Source: Bacteroidia bacterium (lineage in GTDB: Bacteria > Bacteroidota > Bacteroidia > Bacteroidales > VadinHA17). From it: a DNA stretch of 64,000 bases. A program made the position numbers and the translations under genes. Below are positions 1,344 to 6,303 of this stretch, one piece after another; position 1 is the first letter of the stretch, and each line of letters opens with the position of its first letter. The stretch is taken from contig JAPLEB010000122.1 in NCBI GenBank assembly GCA_026391555.1, positions 8,778 to 72,777 of the forward strand, in the 5' to 3' direction. The notes under the pieces were generated by a model. It ran no database searches. It was given only the letters and a program-made list of their open reading frames with translations, and had not been told where the DNA came from.

Positions 1344-1499
1344 GCTGTTCGTCAAAAAGCAGTCTGTTTTTATTAAATATGTTGAAAAAAACGAAACAAT
1401 TTATGTCTGATTAACGTTTAATTATACAGAAGGTTGTAAAAATTCGTTACAAGGTTTTTTTTCATAGGTTTAGGTTTAGTTTTAGGGTAGTAAAGTAGT

Positions 1500-1530
1500 A
1501 AGTCAGGACTCCGGTCCTGACTTATTTTTA
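1500..1530. terminator. Stem-loop terminator between convergent thioredoxin and xseB
   Basis: AAGTCAGGAC-TCCG-GTCCTGACTT is a perfect 10-bp stem followed by ATTTTTA. Confidence 0.5.
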
Positions 1531-1725
1531 TACCAGGTCCTTAAATATACTGTTGATCTCCTCCTCCGTTGATCTTAATTTTTTCTGACATTGTTTAATC
1601 AGTTCAGAAGCACGCTTTACTTCAACTGATAACTTATCAACGTCCATATCCCCGTTTTCGATATTCTTCAGAATATCCTCGATCTCTATTACCGCTTCAT
1701 TAAACGAAAATTCCTTTTTTGCCAT
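1528..1725 (-). CDS. xseB: Exodeoxyribonuclease VII small subunit
   Basis: 65 aa helical protein (FSFNEAVIEIEDILKNIENGDMDVDKLSVEVKRASELIKQCQKKL), typical XseB. It shares a strand with xseA. Confidence 0.85.
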   Translation of the reverse strand: MAKKEFSFNEAVIEIEDILKNIENGDMDVDKLSVEVKRASELIKQCQKKLRSTEEEINSIFKDLV

Positions 1726-1740
1726 ATTTTTAAGTTTTAA
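1701..1740. repeat. Direct repeat, left copy (functional xseB start region)
   Basis: TAAACGAAAATTCCTTTTTTGCCATA is 26 nt identical to 2301-2326. Degenerate similarity (10 of 14) continues to about nt 40. It covers the first 25 nt of the xseB CDS plus upstream bases. Confidence 0.8.
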
Positions 1741-1831
1741 ATTTATCTTGATTCTTCAGGTTTTCTTATCTAATTTGTTGATATTAAATGACTGATATAA
1801 ATACAGGTAAAAATATTTTTCCAAAGAACAA

Positions 1832-1862
1832 TTCCCCCTTTGAAGGGGGTCAGGGGGATGTT
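1832..1862. repeat. Inverted repeat, left arm of the DUF559 cassette
   Basis: TTCCCCCTTTGAAGGGGGTCAGGGGGATGTT. Its reverse complement matches 2261-2291 at 30 of 31 positions. The arm contains its own hairpin CCCCCTT-TG-AAGGGGG. Confidence 0.85.
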
Positions 1863-1876
1863 TCTTCTTAAATAGA

Positions 1877-2248
1877 TTAGCATTCTTCTATTTCTATAAT
1901 GACAATTTCTAAAGCCCTTAATACGTCGTTCATATTCCGTTTGACATCAATATCGCTGAATCTGATAAATTTTACTCCAAGCCTTTCTAACTTACTCTGC
2001 CTGTTTGCATCATATTCATATTTGTGATCGTGTGTACATCCATCAATTTCAATAGCCAACATTAGTTCATGGCAATAGAAGTCAACAATATAATCACTTA
2101 AGGGAACCTGTCTGTGAAACTCAAAACCAAAAGATTTTCCTTTAATTTTCTGCCATAACAAAATTTCAGATAAAGTGCTGTTTTTACGTAGTTGTCTGGC
2201 AAGTTCTTTTAAATAAGGATTATATGATATGATCTTGTTTAGTGACAT
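1877..2248 (-). CDS. DUF559 (Vsr-like, PD-(D/E)xK fold) endonuclease domain protein
   Basis: 123 aa with LLWQKIKGKSFGFEFHRQVPLSDYIVDFYCHELMLAIEIDGCTHD...RQSKLERLGVKFIRFSDIDV. This is the typical DUF559 pattern R-Q...Y..DF.....L.IE.DG..H...R...L...G....RF. Confidence 0.85.
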   Translation of the reverse strand: MSLNKIISYNPYLKELARQLRKNSTLSEILLWQKIKGKSFGFEFHRQVPLSDYIVDFYCHELMLAIEIDGCTHDHKYEYDANRQSKLERLGVKFIRFSDIDVKRNMNDVLRALEIVIIEIEEC

Positions 2249-2260
2249 AACCTGGTTTTT

Positions 2261-2291
2261 AACATCCCCCTCACCCCCTTCAAAGGGGGAA
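2261..2291. repeat. Inverted repeat, right arm of the DUF559 cassette
   Basis: AACATCCCCCTCACCCCCTTCAAAGGGGGAA differs by 1 mismatch from the reverse complement of 1832-1862. Confidence 0.85.
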
Positions 2292-2300
2292 TTAAATTAG

Positions 2301-2340
2301 TAAACGAAAATTCCTTTTTTGCCATAACATTTAGTTTTAA
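2301..2340. repeat. Direct repeat, right copy (orphan xseB start)
   Basis: 26 nt identical to 1701-1726. On the minus strand it starts a 28-codon ORF, MAKKEFSFTNLIPPLKGVRGMLKTRLCH. That ORF's stop overlaps the DUF559 ATG in the string ATGTCACTAA. Confidence 0.8.
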
Positions 2341-2382: not shown

Positions 2383-2455
2383 TAACCCACCCCATGCCCC
2401 CCGCCGAAGCGGGGCAGGCTCTCCCAGGAGGGGATTTTTTTTATTAGCATTCTTC
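2383..2455. repeat. C/G-word element plus 13-nt DUF559 3-prime-end remnant
   Basis: TAACCCACCCCATGCCCCCCGCCGAAGCGGGGCAGGCTCTCCCAGGAGGGGA is followed by T8 and ATTAGCATTCTTC. The same ATTAGCATTCTTC spans the stop codon of the intact DUF559 gene (1874-1886). A shorter relative of the word element lies at 60190-60220. Confidence 0.4.
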
Positions 2456-2468
2456 CCTGTTCCCCTCC

Positions 2469-3845
2469 TCACCCAGTCTCCCCAACAACTCTGCTTTTAA
2501 TCGAACCATCACTGAATTGTGTATCAATTAGATCATCTGTTTTTATCTGACTACTCTTTTTCAATATTCTGCCATTCAGTGATGTAATAGTATAACCGCG
2601 CTTTAAAACATTTTCGGGCCTCAGAATTTTAAGAGTGTTTTCCATTCCTGCCAGCAACAGATTATTTCTGTTCATAGAATCTGTTGTGAAGGTTATCAGA
2701 TTCTGTCTGTTTCTTTCAAGTATTGTCTCTTTGCCTGACGAAAAAGATTTTACTGCTGAAACAAGCCTCGATTCCTGATTTGCCGGAACAAGGCCTGCTT
2801 TAAAAGTATATTCTTTACCAATATTCATGATTTCTATTATTTCCCCTGAAAGTTTATCTTTTATATCCGACATCATTAACCGGGCGAGAGGTAATAGTTT
2901 TATTTTGGATGTTTCAATCCGGTTTCTGTTCTTTTCGATGATTATCCGTGAAATATCTTTGATCTCAGAACTCACCTCAATAAGTTGGTTTTCAACCAAA
3001 GCCACGCTATCGATAAGGAAATCGGCCACTGCTGTGGGTGTTTTTAGCGACTTATAAGCTACCATATCGGTGACTGACATATCTTTCTCATGGCCTATGC
3101 CGGTTATAACAGGTAAAGGAAACTGGGTAACATGATATGCAATATTGTAACTGTCGAACCAGCTGAGATCAGACTGAGAGCCTCCACCTCTAATAATTAC
3201 TACAAGGTCGAATAAATGTGAATTTATTGCAATTTTATCAAGAGCGCTTATTACACCCTGTTCAGTTTCTGCCCCCTGCATTGCGCTCTCGATCAATGCA
3301 GTATAAAAAACATATCCAAAACTGTTTCCGGTCAGATGGTTGATAAAATCGGAATATCCTGCTGCCTTCCCTGAAGAAATAATCGCAATTCTTTGAGGAG
3401 CAACGGAAAGGTCAAGTTCCTTATTCATTGAAAATACTCCTTCCTGCTCAAGCTTTTTAATAATAAGCTGACGTTTCATTGCCATTTCTCCGATTGTAAA
3501 TGCAGGATCTATATCGGTGATTACCAGGCTTAGTCCATATAACTCGTGATATTCAATTTTTGTTTTTACCAGGATTTTGAGCCCCTCTTTTAGGGATTCT
3601 CCGGTAATATTTTCAAAAAATGCCTTAAGGAATCTGTAACGGTTGCTCCAGATTATTGCTTTTGCACGTGCCCTGATACTATTCTCGTCGGGATGTTTTT
3701 CAATGAGTTCGAGGTAACAATGACCGGCAAAATTTTCCTTAATCTCCGAGATTTCAGCAATTACCCAATACATGTCAGGCAAAGCCAGATATAAAGAATC
3801 TCTTATAATCAACTGTAATTCTGTTAATGACAGTTTTTCAGTCAT
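2469..3845 (-). CDS. xseA: Exodeoxyribonuclease VII large subunit
   Basis: About 458 aa with N-terminal OB-fold region, central catalytic region (IIRGGGSQSDLSWFD) and long helical C-terminus. The ORF track begins at a TTG at 3851; the first ATG is at 3845. Confidence 0.9.
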   Translation of the reverse strand: MTEKLSLTELQLIIRDSLYLALPDMYWVIAEISEIKENFAGHCYLELIEKHPDENSIRARAKAIIWSNRYRFLKAFFENITGESLKEGLKILVKTKIEYHELYGLSLVITDIDPAFTIGEMAMKRQLIIKKLEQEGVFSMNKELDLSVAPQRIAIISSGKAAGYSDFINHLTGNSFGYVFYTALIESAMQGAETEQGVISALDKIAINSHLFDLVVIIRGGGSQSDLSWFDSYNIAYHVTQFPLPVITGIGHEKDMSVTDMVAYKSLKTPTAVADFLIDSVALVENQLIEVSSEIKDISRIIIEKNRNRIETSKIKLLPLARLMMSDIKDKLSGEIIEIMNIGKEYTFKAGLVPANQESRLVSAVKSFSSGKETILERNRQNLITFTTDSMNRNNLLLAGMENTLKILRPENVLKRGYTITSLNGRILKKSSQIKTDDLIDTQFSDGSIKSRVVGETG

Positions 3846-3847
3846 GT

Positions 3848-5515
3848 TCAATTTTTAAGTTTGATAACCTTGTGAGTAAAAGTGCCATAACCGGTTATTA
3901 TCCTGATAATATAGATTCCCTCTTCTTTATTCCTGAGCTCGGTTATTAGCAATGTACGTCCGAAATAATCAGGGTAATTCCTCTCAGCAACTAAATTTCC
4001 GGAAATAGTAAAAATCTCAAGTTTAAACTGACCCGGGGTTAGCCGGAAGGCTATTTCTATATCATCAGTGAAGGGGTTTGGACCGGCAACAGTTTCTTTA
4101 TCAGGGTTTCCTAAAAGAAAATTCTGCAGTAATTTAAGCATCGTGAGGGCGTCAACCATATCGGGAATTCCATAGCCATAAAGGGAGTCGGGTGAGTTAT
4201 GCCTGTCACCGCTGGAGTGAAGAGCCTCAATAACATCGGTGTTTAGCGCCATGGGGACAGCCTGCATGAGACATGCTGCCATTCCACTTAAAACGGGACA
4301 GGAAAAGGATGTGCCATTTGATCTATCCACTAAAGATAAAGCGGTTTGCACCGGAACACTTACCCCCATAGTGGAAATATCCGGTTTGATTCTGCCATCG
4401 GCAGACGGACCGGCTGAGGAGAAAGTTGAAATAATGTTGTTCCCATCAACAGCTCCAACCGCAAGAACACTATCTCCGTCTGAGGGGAAGATGATACGTT
4501 TCCAATTTTTGTTCCTCTCATTCCCGGCACTGTTGACAACAAGAATTCCTTTTGAAGCGGCGATATCAGCCGCCCTTGTCACGAAGGCGGTGTTACCGTC
4601 CAGATCGGAGTATTTATAATTGAGAGTTGGATCATTAAAATCGTAATATCCCAGTGATGAGGAAATTATGTCGGCGCCTGCACTATCTGCAAATTCAGCG
4701 CCTGCGGCCCAGAAATCTTCCTCACAAGGGAACTCGGACTCTACATCTTCAGTTTTGAGAAGTAAATAATCGGCCCCGGGAGCTGTTCCTTCGATCGACC
4801 CGGGAATTTTTCCGGCCAGGACAGAAAGTACAGCGGTACCATGTGAGCTGTTACTATATACGGACTTATTATTATTTACAAAATCATATGTCGCTTTTAT
4901 TCCATTTCTGTTTCGAAGATCATTCAGGGAGGATATCTGATCGGCTATAATAAAGCCTCCATCAAGAATGGCTATCAGAACGCCTTTTCCATCATAACCT
5001 GAATTATGAAGAGGATAGCCGTTAACCATTGCTATCGGCCGGTCAAAAGGAGGGAGGTCGGCCTGTTCTATCTGAAAGTCGTGTTTATCAATAAAATTGT
5101 TCTTGTAACCTGGTGTTTTTACGATTTTGACATCGCTTACAAATGATAAATCAAGCAAGATGTTAATATCGGCAGGAGACTGAGTTTTGAATAGGGCAGT
5201 ATTCATCCATTTCGAAGTACAGTGAAGTTTAAATACTGAAGATGATATCTGATTAAGGTAGCCTGTATAAACTGGGATATCCCTGAAATCTGGTACAGGA
5301 ATTCCGGATTTTTGTCTGCGGTACATAGCTCTGGGGGAAATCAGATCTCCGGGGGCATAATTGCCTGTTGCATTCTCTCCTTTGTCCCTGAAGTAGACTC
5401 TGTAATAATAGTAATAAGTTGATCCTTGTCCATACAAGCAATTAGCTGCTGATAAAAGCAAAAGAGTAAAAGCGATTTTCACTCCCTTCCCTGTTGAAAG
5501 ATTGAAAGCCTTCAT
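3848..5515 (-). CDS. S8 (subtilisin-like) serine peptidase with T9SS C-terminal sorting domain
   Basis: Catalytic triad contexts are AILDGG (Asp), HGTAVLS (His) and GTSFSCPVLSG (Ser). It has a signal peptide. The C-terminal ~80 aa (NPFTDDIEIAFRL...GIYIIRIITGYGTFTHKVIKL) resembles a Por/T9SS CTD. ATG at 5515; the track starts at a GTG at 5521. Confidence 0.85.
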   Translation of the reverse strand: MKAFNLSTGKGVKIAFTLLLLSAANCLYGQGSTYYYYYRVYFRDKGENATGNYAPGDLISPRAMYRRQKSGIPVPDFRDIPVYTGYLNQISSSVFKLHCTSKWMNTALFKTQSPADINILLDLSFVSDVKIVKTPGYKNNFIDKHDFQIEQADLPPFDRPIAMVNGYPLHNSGYDGKGVLIAILDGGFIIADQISSLNDLRNRNGIKATYDFVNNNKSVYSNSSHGTAVLSVLAGKIPGSIEGTAPGADYLLLKTEDVESEFPCEEDFWAAGAEFADSAGADIISSSLGYYDFNDPTLNYKYSDLDGNTAFVTRAADIAASKGILVVNSAGNERNKNWKRIIFPSDGDSVLAVGAVDGNNIISTFSSAGPSADGRIKPDISTMGVSVPVQTALSLVDRSNGTSFSCPVLSGMAACLMQAVPMALNTDVIEALHSSGDRHNSPDSLYGYGIPDMVDALTMLKLLQNFLLGNPDKETVAGPNPFTDDIEIAFRLTPGQFKLEIFTISGNLVAERNYPDYFGRTLLITELRNKEEGIYIIRIITGYGTFTHKVIKLKN

Positions 5516-6303
5516 TACCACATAACTCCGGTTTTCTCCGGGTCAGCAATTTTCCCCTTGTTTTTCTCAAGGAAGTCTAAATAGTCAGACTCATCAATAT
5601 CCATCTGGCGATCCTTTGTAACTCCTGCCAGGTATTCTAATTTGTATTTAATGGTTCCGTCATTATTATAAATAAGCCAATGTCCATCCCTTACGTCATT
5701 TTTATATTGTCCGGAAAACTCAATCTGTCCATTTTCAAACCAAACCTCAAACCTGCCATTAACTTTGCCGTTCAGATAATTAGATTTCAGGCAGATGGCG
5801 CCGTTTGGATAGTATCTGATCCATTCCCCCTGCCTGATATCATTTATGTATGTGAGTCTTTCGGCAACCGTACTGTCGGGATAGAATTTAAGGGATGGAC
5901 CGTTTTTGAGATTTCGGGAGTATTGTTCTTCGGAGATCAGATACCCTTTCGTAATTGCGGAGAAGAATTGCCATTTTCCCTCTTTCATCTGTTTGATGTA
6001 AGTTCCTTTTGAGGAGATATTGCCATTCGGGTGATAAATAGTTGCAATTGCCGCTGTACCATCGCCATTGTATATGAGCAGGGATTTTAAAGTTTTGTCT
6101 TCATTATATCTTCTGAACTCACCGACAGGATGATCGTCCTTAAAAAGTCCATCATACATAACATTTTCATTAGGATATTTTTTAATCCAATGTCCCTGTT
6201 TCCTTCCCTCGGTATCTGTCTGATTAATATTCATTTCAGTCTGACATGTTGCCATGGCCGAAATGGCAAACAAAGAAGTAATTGTAATTATTTTCAGATT
6301 CAT
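5515..6303 (-). CDS. MORN-repeat (YwqK-like) periplasmic protein
   Basis: Contains repeated G.W..Y..NG motifs (GEWIRYYPNG, GRFEVWFENG, GHWLIYNNDG) and a signal peptide from the ATG at 6303 (MNLKIITITSLFAISAMA). The track start at 6330 is a TTG. Confidence 0.7.
   Translation of the reverse strand: MNLKIITITSLFAISAMATCQTEMNINQTDTEGRKQGHWIKKYPNENVMYDGLFKDDHPVGEFRRYNEDKTLKSLLIYNGDGTAAIATIYHPNGNISSKGTYIKQMKEGKWQFFSAITKGYLISEEQYSRNLKNGPSLKFYPDSTVAERLTYINDIRQGEWIRYYPNGAICLKSNYLNGKVNGRFEVWFENGQIEFSGQYKNDVRDGHWLIYNNDGTIKYKLEYLAGVTKDRQMDIDESDYLDFLEKNKGKIADPEKTGVMW

Follow-up and report, generated by a model that had tools for sequence, protein, structure and literature searches.

The 64-kb stretch of contig JAPLEB010000122.1 studied here (Bacteroidia bacterium, assembly GCA_026391555.1; the whole stretch is called the window below) carries a small cassette at the start of xseB, the gene for the small subunit of exonuclease VII, just downstream of xseA, which encodes the large subunit. 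The cassette consists of one gene of the DUF559 family, predicted to encode a Vsr-type nuclease, framed by inverted repeats, and the start of xseB is present on both sides of it. Taken as a whole, the evidence makes it probable that a DUF559 cassette with triplex-type terminal units was inserted into xseB, that the xseB start was duplicated and that the cassette has spread through nuclease-provoked repair. Comparison loci are labelled L001-L169 below.

The insertion in xseB and its duplicated target

Read along the minus strand, the locus runs from xseA through a 143-nt spacer into a copy of the xseB start, followed by an 8-nt filler, an inverted-repeat arm, 12 nt, the DUF559 gene (123 codons), 14 nt, the other arm, an 89-nt tail and a further copy of the xseB start, which continues into the remainder of xseB (Table 1). 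The direct repeat formed by the two starts (1701-1740 and 2301-2340) is 40 nt long with 36 of 40 positions identical, has a spacing of exactly 600 and includes an uninterrupted core of 26 nt without mismatch (about 1701-1725 and 2301-2325). The inverted-repeat arms (1830-1862 and 2261-2293) measure 33 nt and are 97% complementary. Both repeat patterns are confined to this locus within the window, and 100 shuffles gave 0 matches. The initial annotation of this DNA had described the start duplication (1701-1726 and 2301-2326, 26 of 26 identical), with the left copy heading the real xseB, and a 28-codon orphan open reading frame (ORF) running through the right repeat to a TAA in the string that holds the DUF559 start; all of this is borne out by the direct-repeat search, the intact xseB and the translation. 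It had also reported 31-nt inverted repeats framing a single DUF559 gene (1877-2248), each with a CCCCCTT/AAGGGGG hairpin. The framing and the hairpins stand, but the arms are 33 nt long, and each also carries the second G-run of a conserved three-part motif.

Relatives in which the site is empty show what was added. Scanning metagenome contigs for XseB gave 80 loci at 80-95% identity, and the 74 of these that lack DUF559 and include the end of xseA have a single xseB start each, 2-157 nt after xseA (341 nt in one). When each locus was scanned for another copy of its own first 24 xseB bases, a second start was recognisable only in the window, in L081 with its duplicates and in L165, all of which carry the cassette; no cassette-free relative among the 74 xseA-xseB loci has two starts, which is the outcome of the alignment with insert-free relatives that the initial annotation had proposed. 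The site is thus found filled in 5 loci and empty in 74, with the same insertion point. Together with its presence at many unrelated sites, described below, this upholds the earlier claim that a discrete cassette was inserted at the 5' end of xseB.

In the window, the sequence between the xseA stop and the orphan start aligns colinearly with the spacers of cassette-free L107 and L145, including a solo G+C-rich unit upstream of the start. The orphan copy is therefore in its native place, and the extra sequence comprises cassette, tail and a single start-region copy. The upstream part of the functional copy matches the native spacers of relatives at 85-94%. The cassette sits 33 nt inside the former xseB reading frame, and the duplicated target spans about -14 to +26 of the xseB start (about 40 nt); it may extend from -22 to +33, and the 8-nt filler may be its diverged end. 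As xseB is intact behind the downstream copy, production of the small subunit remains possible. The earlier proposal that the target was restored by a duplicated start holds as a description of the outcome.

Other carriers at the xseB site

Among 2587 relatives of the DUF559 protein found in a 5.8-billion-protein collection, the nearest are 85, 82, 80 and 76% identical and are all encoded between xseA and xseB or directly upstream of xseB. L081-L083 and L084 carry DUF559 between the two genes in the order S8 peptidase, xseA, DUF559, xseB, thioredoxin, poly(A) polymerase. L165 has it between the apparent end of xseA and xseB; the contig of L166, where the gene lies directly upstream of xseB, begins inside the 5' unit, so that the xseA side is not covered. 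An orphan start is present in L165 and in L081, where it lies 11 nt after the xseA stop, and has decayed in L084 through a change of ATG to TTG plus a deletion. From the orphan ATG to the cassette end there are 33 nt in the window, 33 nt in L081 and 32 nt in L165, and the orphan copies are graded in decay, with 0, 2 and 4 mismatches before becoming unrecognisable in L084. Of the loci compared, only L081 shares tail sequence with the window, in a 27-nt block (1762-1788; tail alignment z = 3.0).

Some features of these loci are recorded here in their own right. In L166 three degenerate copies of a hairpin-only repeat come after the 3' unit, arrayed at intervals of ~31 nt (430-575), and the DUF559 ORF continues through the unit to give a 146-aa product. 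The xseA-xseB spacer, which ranges from 2 to 157 nt among close relatives, holds short tandem repeats after the xseA stop in L117, L138, L143, L148, L087 and L103, for example (TAAGGGAC)n, (GACGAAGAGA)n and (GGGAGAAT)n.

A discrete mobile unit paired with structured repeats

Homology to DUF559 loci at unrelated sites covers 2293..1830 only, a unit of ~464 bp that excludes the tail. The cassette ends in ATT...AAT, and conservation outside the units stops after ATT/AAT. The tail was considered as part of the mobile unit and rejected because homology to unrelated sites ends at the 3' unit. According to the ORF list and Pfam, DUF559 is the only ORF in the cassette, and no DDE, HUH or serine/tyrosine transposase is encoded. 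Sequence comparison thus shows a cassette of ~464 bp, with one apparently promoter-less DUF559 gene and inverted terminal units, that behaves as a discrete mobile unit at many unrelated sites. One DUF559 gene, for example, lies near rpsU (L167). Another, beside dxr (L169), is framed by a unit identical to that of the window (27/27); as a side observation, its contig is binned as Nitrospirota, and the DUF559 gene (72% identical) with the window's exact 27-nt unit at 1440-1910 reflects either cross-phylum transfer or a binning error. Relatives of the DUF559 protein were also looked for on viral contigs and none was found.

The association between gene and repeat was quantified in 80 DUF559 loci taken from one-per-species Bacteroidota genomes. 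A correctly oriented hairpin-plus-G-run unit lies within 150-200 nt of the gene in 64 of the 80 loci and on both sides in 32. Away from these positions units thin out, to 0.12 per kb over the rest of the flanks and 0.017 per kb over 301 kb from cassette-free relatives, and shuffled sequence gave none. Next to DUF559 genes the enrichment exceeds 100-fold, and the units on the two sides are in inverted orientation. The initial annotation had named ubiquitous repetitive extragenic palindromic (REP) elements, with no link to DUF559, as the finding that would speak against it; for the sampled genomes this is rejected, as the units are rare away from the gene (0.017 per kb) and strongly linked to it (64/80), though gene-less units exist. 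The window holds only three units, all at the xseA-xseB locus, and the five units in cassette-free relatives are all in or just upstream of the xseA-xseB spacer, which looks like a hot spot for triplex-type units. The solo unit of the window, which has an additional hairpin (2396-2419) within its second loop, is colinear with the solo units of cassette-free L107 and L145. Seven A's upstream of it, a 13-nt copy of the DUF559 3' end is possibly a remnant of an earlier cassette, or a chance match (rough chance expectation 0.01-0.05 in the 1.2-kb region).

In the source freshwater-sediment metagenomes, contig depth over the units (window 1832-1885, 2264-2317 and 2372-2439) is 10-60x that of the flanks, with many differing flanks; for the solo unit it is 140-589, compared with about 10 in the flanks. 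Run X4 is rich in units though this genome is nearly absent from it. Multiple DUF559 copies occur per genome or locus, sometimes 2 kb apart (L036 at 2995-3366 and 5226-5591, L047, L056, and L018 with L045 in the same genome). Direct repeats of 40-240 nt, made up mainly of units, bracket many members of the family; in L076, L018, L003, L056 and L006 they measure 60-240 nt. L066 is a second case of a long duplication bracketing the cassette, with a 43-nt stretch plus unit at 2905-2975, before DUF559, and again at 3477-3547, before the downstream gene for a GntR-type regulator.

Terminal units with a three-block mirror design

The order of parts common to the family is ATT, a pyrimidine run (Y1), a loop (often TTGA), a purine run complementary to Y1 (R1), 3-4 nt (often TTA), a further purine run (R2) and TGT. 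Stems vary by lineage (CCCCC, GTCCCC, ATCCCC, CTCCCC, CCCTCC, CCTCCC, CCCCTC and CCCCTCC). R1 co-varies with Y1, and R2 co-varies as the mirror of R1, being neither a direct nor a Watson-Crick copy, as in the pairs GGGAGGA/AGGAGGG, GAGGGGA/AGGGGAG, GGAGGGA/AGGGAGG, GGGGAT/TAGGGG and GGGGAG/GAGGGG; T occurs occasionally where the mirror predicts A. With a detection rule that left interruption positions free, the mirror outperforms a direct repeat as a description of 53 of 63 distinct unit variants, with the reverse true of 2, and at least 8 stem classes co-vary across all three segments. An extra hairpin in the second loop leaves the mirror intact (L002, L006, L018, L046, L068 and the solo unit of the window). 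The window unit, CCCCCTT / AAGGGGG / GGGGGAT, fits the three-block design but is uninformative alone because its runs are homopolymeric. ViennaRNA, which cannot model triplexes, pairs the C-run of the window unit with either G-run; Watson-Crick pairing of the second G-run with the C-run, which it chooses for that unit, fails in the interrupted stem classes, where the mirror alone holds, and was rejected.

In these sequence features, the terminal units share the design of the bacterial intrastrand triplex repeats known as BoxC, PIT or TM. The E. coli motif of this group, TM_ECO, folds into a purine-motif triplex in vitro according to circular dichroism and nuclear magnetic resonance, and has been tied to genomic instability, with no mobility function reported near its sites (Holder et al., 2015; PMC4666352). 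Stems in the present family are 5-8 nt long (7 in the window, counting two A:T pairs), compared with 6-15 nt in the ITxF criterion and 9 nt in TM_ECO.

Table 1. Features of the xseA-xseB locus and of comparison loci. Coordinates without a locus label refer to the window.
Feature	Position	Strand	Evidence or remark
xseA (exonuclease VII large subunit, 460 aa)	2469..3851	-	Pfam Exonuc_VII_L 5.7e-62 and tRNA_anti_2; synteny kept in all relatives
13-nt exact copy of DUF559 3' end including stop (GAAGAATGCTAAT), right after xseA stop	2443..2455	-	direct-repeat search
Solo terminal-type unit (CCCCTCC...GGGGTGG class) in native xseA-xseB spacer	2385..2434	-	third and last generalised-unit match in 64 kb
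Orphan xseB-start copy (14 nt upstream and first 26 nt coding), native position downstream of xseA	2301..2340	-	direct repeat; alignment with empty sites
Orphan ORF, 28 codons, from orphan xseB ATG	2239..2325	-	ORF list; translation MAKKEFSFTNLIPPLKGVRGMLKTRLCH*
Junction filler, 8 nt (CTAATTTA), between orphan copy and cassette end	2293..2300	-	sequence reading
5' terminal inverted unit: ATT, CCCCCTT (Y1, 2283-2289), TG loop, AAGGGGG (R1, 2274-2280), TGA, GGGGGAT (R2, 2264-2270), GT	2261..2293	-	inverted repeat
DUF559 gene for predicted nuclease (123 aa), Vsr / I-Bth0305I fold	1877..2248	-	Pfam 2.8e-29
3' terminal inverted unit (reverse complement of 5' unit)	1830..1862	-	inverted repeat; homology with unrelated-site cassettes stops here
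A+T-rich tail, 89 nt, between cassette and real xseB start region	1741..1829	-	outside canonical cassette
Functional xseB-start copy heading intact gene	1701..1740	-	direct repeat
xseB (exonuclease VII small subunit, 65 aa), intact	1528..1725	-	Pfam Exonuc_VII_S 7.1e-14; 80-95% identical to 80 metagenomic relatives
Hairpin 3' of xseB stop, between xseB and opposite-strand thioredoxin gene	1490..1533	.	inverted repeat
Gene-less units	L145 2441-2465; L154 2195-2271; L162 68-100; L107 about 2420-2455
PALP read-through loci	L004, L005, L013-L015, L020, L021, L023, L025, L027, L029, L031, L033, L044, L055 (about 2995-4340)

The DUF559 protein

The encoded protein matches PF04480 with 101.6 bits against a cut-off of 20.6 (2.8e-29) and PDB 3hrl in a sequence search (3.8e-14). 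Its predicted model has a predicted local distance difference test (pLDDT) score of 90.2, and Foldseek matches this model to the Neisseria DUF559 protein 3hrl (6e-7), the catalytic domain of I-Bth0305I (3r3p; template modelling score, TM, 0.61/0.74) and Vsr (1vsr). D55, E66, D68 and H72 are invariant in 37 homologues. The three families (DUF559, I-Bth0305I and Vsr) form one clade in a survey of PD-(D/E)XK proteins (PMC3424549), and the Caulobacter DUF559 protein VsrA, which works alongside a cytosine methylase, leads to DNA damage in vivo in the absence of cognate methylation (PMC12907096). Because of the fold, the invariant residues and the related families, the protein is likely to be a nuclease or nickase. 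The cassette's neighbours are xseA, xseB, a thioredoxin gene and an S8 peptidase gene, with no methyltransferase gene among them.

Exact-sequence look-ups showed that the XseB and DUF559 proteins of the window are not on record. Rfam gave nothing near gathering score over 1400-2600, and PADLOC and NCBIfam gave weak or sub-threshold matches only, so that the cassette is not classed as a defence system.

Expression and the starts of host genes

Only 12 nt separate the 5' unit from the DUF559 ATG, which leaves no room for a promoter of its own, and DUF559 must therefore be read from upstream transcription; it would be transcribed together with xseA. The orphan ORF crosses the 5' terminal unit and ends at a TAA that lies 7 nt beyond the first base of the DUF559 ATG, both within ATGTCACTAA. 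Ribosomes starting at the orphan xseB ATG would thus cross the 5' unit, probably opening its hairpin, and halt 7 nt into DUF559. Hijacking of the xseB start by translational coupling via the orphan ORF, as the initial annotation had suggested, is plausible on this arrangement, and orphan-ORF translation may permit re-initiation at DUF559, at slightly less than even odds. Among RNA sequencing runs, none was found to contain the locus. Analogous orphan ORFs end, in other frames, 11 nt past the DUF559 ATG in L081 (29 codons) and 33 nt past it in L165, and L084 has none. An open frame across the G+C-rich repeat is expected by chance, as only 5-8 A+T-rich codons must stay open, and leader ORFs were rejected as a trait of the family, being found at 7 independent loci among 68 scored compared with 8% in a control of random ATGs. 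Because of this chance openness and a family frequency equal to the control, coupling is a reasonable guess and not a finding.

On the mRNA strand the 3' unit forms a hairpin followed by AATTGTTCTT and is terminator-like; xseB may need either read-through of this unit or a promoter in the tail. Elsewhere the cassette is joined to host genes more directly. At ~15 Flavobacteriaceae loci the DUF559 frame is open through the 3' unit into a pyridoxal-phosphate-dependent enzyme (PALP), and at two Bacteroidales loci it is open into IspG/GcpE (L061 2422-4464; L065 2986-4947). The junctions of L005 and L065 contain no in-frame ATG, GTG or TTG between the unit and the conserved host domain, and fused ORF lengths differ between species by multiples of three. 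These frames suggest that DUF559-PALP and DUF559-IspG are real fusion proteins or that the host depends on the cassette start. The cassette is thus found repeatedly at the very beginning of host genes, with the start duplicated at xseB and the host protein elsewhere seemingly dependent on the start of the cassette.

A parallel at E. coli ycjD

In E. coli K-12 (L168, NC_000913.3) the DUF559 gene ycjD lies between sapF and fabI. Copy no. 9 of the 23 TM_ECO repeats (1,351,204-1,351,239) is found 168 nt downstream of it on the same strand, and for any one gene in a 4.64-Mb genome the chance of having one of 23 copies no more than 250 nt away on either side is about 0.0025. A decayed inverted TM_ECO partner of 25 nt (80% complementary) spans the ycjD stop, and a 39-nt copy of the ycjD 3' end lies between ycjD and TM_ECO no. 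9 (L168 5217-5465, corresponding to 1,351,204-1,351,465). A survey reports that ycjD holds the sapF-fabI locus exactly in those E. coli lineages without the eefRABCD operon there (PMC12817139). As judged from sequence, a Vsr-type nuclease gene is accompanied by inverted triplex-motif repeats across many Bacteroidota loci and again at one E. coli gene. We did not find this pairing described before: our incomplete coverage of the literature gave no link between DUF559 or ycjD and these repeats.

Origin and movement of the cassette

We lean, with modest confidence, towards a cassette family that moves by nuclease-provoked repair, and towards lateral spread of the filled allele or repeated entry over one ancient entry. 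A nick or break would be repaired by copying the cassette from another copy, and the long host-derived duplication would result from widely staggered nicks or from a target re-copied after a template switch. Afterwards the filled allele could pass between related genomes by recombination through xseA and xseB, and clean loss could occur by recombination between the two starts. The duplication itself could be caused by fill-in after the two strands were nicked ~50 nt apart, by break-induced replication in which the template changes to a cassette copy and synthesis then resumes upstream of its departure point, or by Campbell-type integration of a 600-bp circle released by recombination between starts. 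Given the 89-nt tail and the 8-nt filler, break-induced replication or Campbell-type integration would fit better than staggered nicks.

The principal alternative is that the cassette entered xseB once in the distant past and was inherited vertically, with many clean losses through start-start recombination or slippage while gene conversion, or selection for an efficient initiation region, kept the two starts alike; the site would then need no continuing mobility. It would account for the near-constant insertion point (distances from the orphan ATG of 33 nt in the window, 33 nt in L081 and 32 nt in L165), the common tail block, the placement of the four closest homologues at this site and the graded decay of the orphan copies, and direct repeats would be expected to ease precise loss. 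The distribution of the cassette speaks against it: in the XseA tree the window is nested among cassette-free lineages (77-79% identity) as sister to L097 and L107, whereas L081 and L084 are deep branches about 62% identical to the window, and because over 50 cassette-free lineages surround the window, at least ten independent losses would be needed. The silent sites of DUF559 are also less diverged than those of the flanking host genes, since third codon positions at conserved residues agree between the window and L081 at 73/104 in DUF559 compared with 216/441 in xseA, xseB and the thioredoxin gene (Fisher p = 1.2e-4). Moreover, both start copies carry the bases of their own lineage (the window has TCG, like its cassette-free sisters, and L081 has AAG and GAG), which under a single entry requires at least 3 parallel changes or conversion over only 26-40 nt. 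The bases shared by the two starts and by the tails offer too few sites to separate single from repeated insertion. On balance we consider one ancient entry unlikely.

It is far less probable that DUF559 is an ordinary resident gene for a Vsr-like mismatch endonuclease and that the repeats are REP-like or terminator elements of a general kind, functionally unconnected with it. The family is indeed annotated as very-short-patch repair endonucleases, its Caulobacter member acts with a cytosine methylase (PMC12907096), the 3' unit resembles a terminator, and units occur without the gene in the L145, L154 and L162 spacers and at high metagenome depth. A resident repair gene would leave unexplained, however, the more than 100-fold enrichment of inverted units on both sides of DUF559, homology that stops exactly at the units, presence or absence at one site among close relatives, several copies per genome and the lack of a methyltransferase gene beside the cassette. 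Hardly any weight is given to an assembly artefact, in which repeats produced a chimeric metagenomic contig that misplaced the cassette and the second start. In the source metagenomes the units do occur in high copy number, and short contigs end at them, but the same architecture is present in independent JGI, ENA and Logan assemblies (L081-L083, L084 and L165), and Logan contigs cover 1833-2413 and 1585-1859 without mismatch.

Several points weigh against insertion followed by nuclease-provoked spread as set out above. The lineage-specific bases shared by the two starts need a fresh duplication in each lineage or gene conversion, and a 40-55 nt duplication is unlike the products of homing endonucleases or classical transposases. 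The 89-nt tail, which lies outside the canonical cassette, and the 8-nt filler are without explanation, and the empty-site joint was not seen in the sample's own metagenome contigs. The identical insertion point in the window, L081 and L165 and the tail block shared by the window and L081 fit repeated site-specific entry no better than a single ancient insertion with many losses. Triplex formation has been demonstrated for the E. coli motif only, and the units here are shorter; the nuclease activity of the protein is a prediction; and translational coupling is weakly grounded, as the orphan start has decayed in L084 and leader ORFs are not a family trait.

Significance and comparison with known systems

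A broader and more tentative proposal, which we hold to be somewhat doubtful, is that DUF559 nucleases are the missing partner enzymes of the intrastrand-triplex repeats (BoxC/PIT/TM): they would recognise the folded unit and nick beside it, and repair or replication restart would copy the unit or the whole cassette into new sites by template switching. If true, such a process would leave long, variable, host-derived duplications and 3'-end remnants, and it would equally allow cassettes to become established within the first codons of host genes, as with the duplicated start at xseB and the fusions to the PALP enzyme and IspG. If the link is functional, it would constitute a new repeat-plus-enzyme system, similar to REP elements with their REP-associated tyrosine transposases (RAYTs) and built on a Vsr-type nuclease and a non-B DNA structure, and two widespread objects of obscure role, the DUF559 domain and the G/C-rich triplex repeats, would explain each other. 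The xseB site offers a natural experiment, with filled and empty alleles, exact junctions, a duplicated target and a leader ORF, and would be a case of a selfish insert inside a coding start that did not kill the gene. Where the host depends on the cassette start, the cassette would be hard to lose.

Vsr and VsrA (PMC12907096) have the same Pfam domain and fold, but no methyltransferase gene lies beside the cassette, and a cassette with terminal units has not been described for those genes. BoxC/PIT/TM_ECO repeats (PMC4666352) resemble the units in their C-rich run, loop, complementary G-rich run, 3-nt loop (often TTA) and second G-rich run, in interruptions at mirror positions with T tolerated opposite A, and in their intergenic occurrence, solo or as inverted pairs. 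They differ in their stems (9-10 nt there, 5-8 nt here) and host phylum, and in that the units here frame a gene whereas no mobility gene was reported near TM_ECO sites.

Insertion sequence (IS) or miniature inverted-repeat (MITE)-type transposons likewise have terminal inverted repeats, but the cassette has no transposase and its duplication of 40-55 nt has no short fixed length. Prophages and islands that integrate in tRNA genes keep their target functional, with the displaced part present twice as flanking direct repeats. The cassette shares both the functional target and the displaced part duplicated as direct repeats around the element; unlike in those elements, the 5' end is duplicated here and not the 3' end, there is no integrase, and in each lineage the two copies have the appearance of host sequence.

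Free-standing homing endonuclease genes, including that of the EDxHD enzyme I-Bth0305I (PDB 3r3p), offer a further comparison. They share a related catalytic fold, a small promoter-less gene embedded in a host operon, filled and empty alleles at one precise site in a conserved gene, and silent sites younger than those of the host genes. Homing, however, needs no terminal inverted repeats and leaves no target duplication, whereas 40-nt direct and 33-nt inverted repeats are present here; the cassette also occupies many unrelated sites, and cleavage by its product is predicted from fold only.

The organisation of the cassette also resembles that of the REP/REPIN-RAYT systems, in which one small gene is likewise flanked by inverted, structured palindromic repeats and the repeat also occurs without the gene, solo, paired or arrayed; the single-copy DUF559 gene of E. 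coli with its 23 dispersed repeats fits the same picture. Our incomplete survey of the literature on DUF559, on REPIN/RAYT in Bacteroidetes and on triplex repeats found no gene-repeat link. The differences lie in the enzyme, which is a predicted PD-(D/E)XK Vsr-like nuclease and not an HUH tyrosine (Y1) transposase, and in the units, which carry ATT/TGT in place of a GTAG or CGTC tag and are rare in the sampled genomes (0.017 per kb). In contrast to the domesticated gene of those systems, several gene copies per genome and polymorphism at the site point to a DUF559 gene that is mobile.

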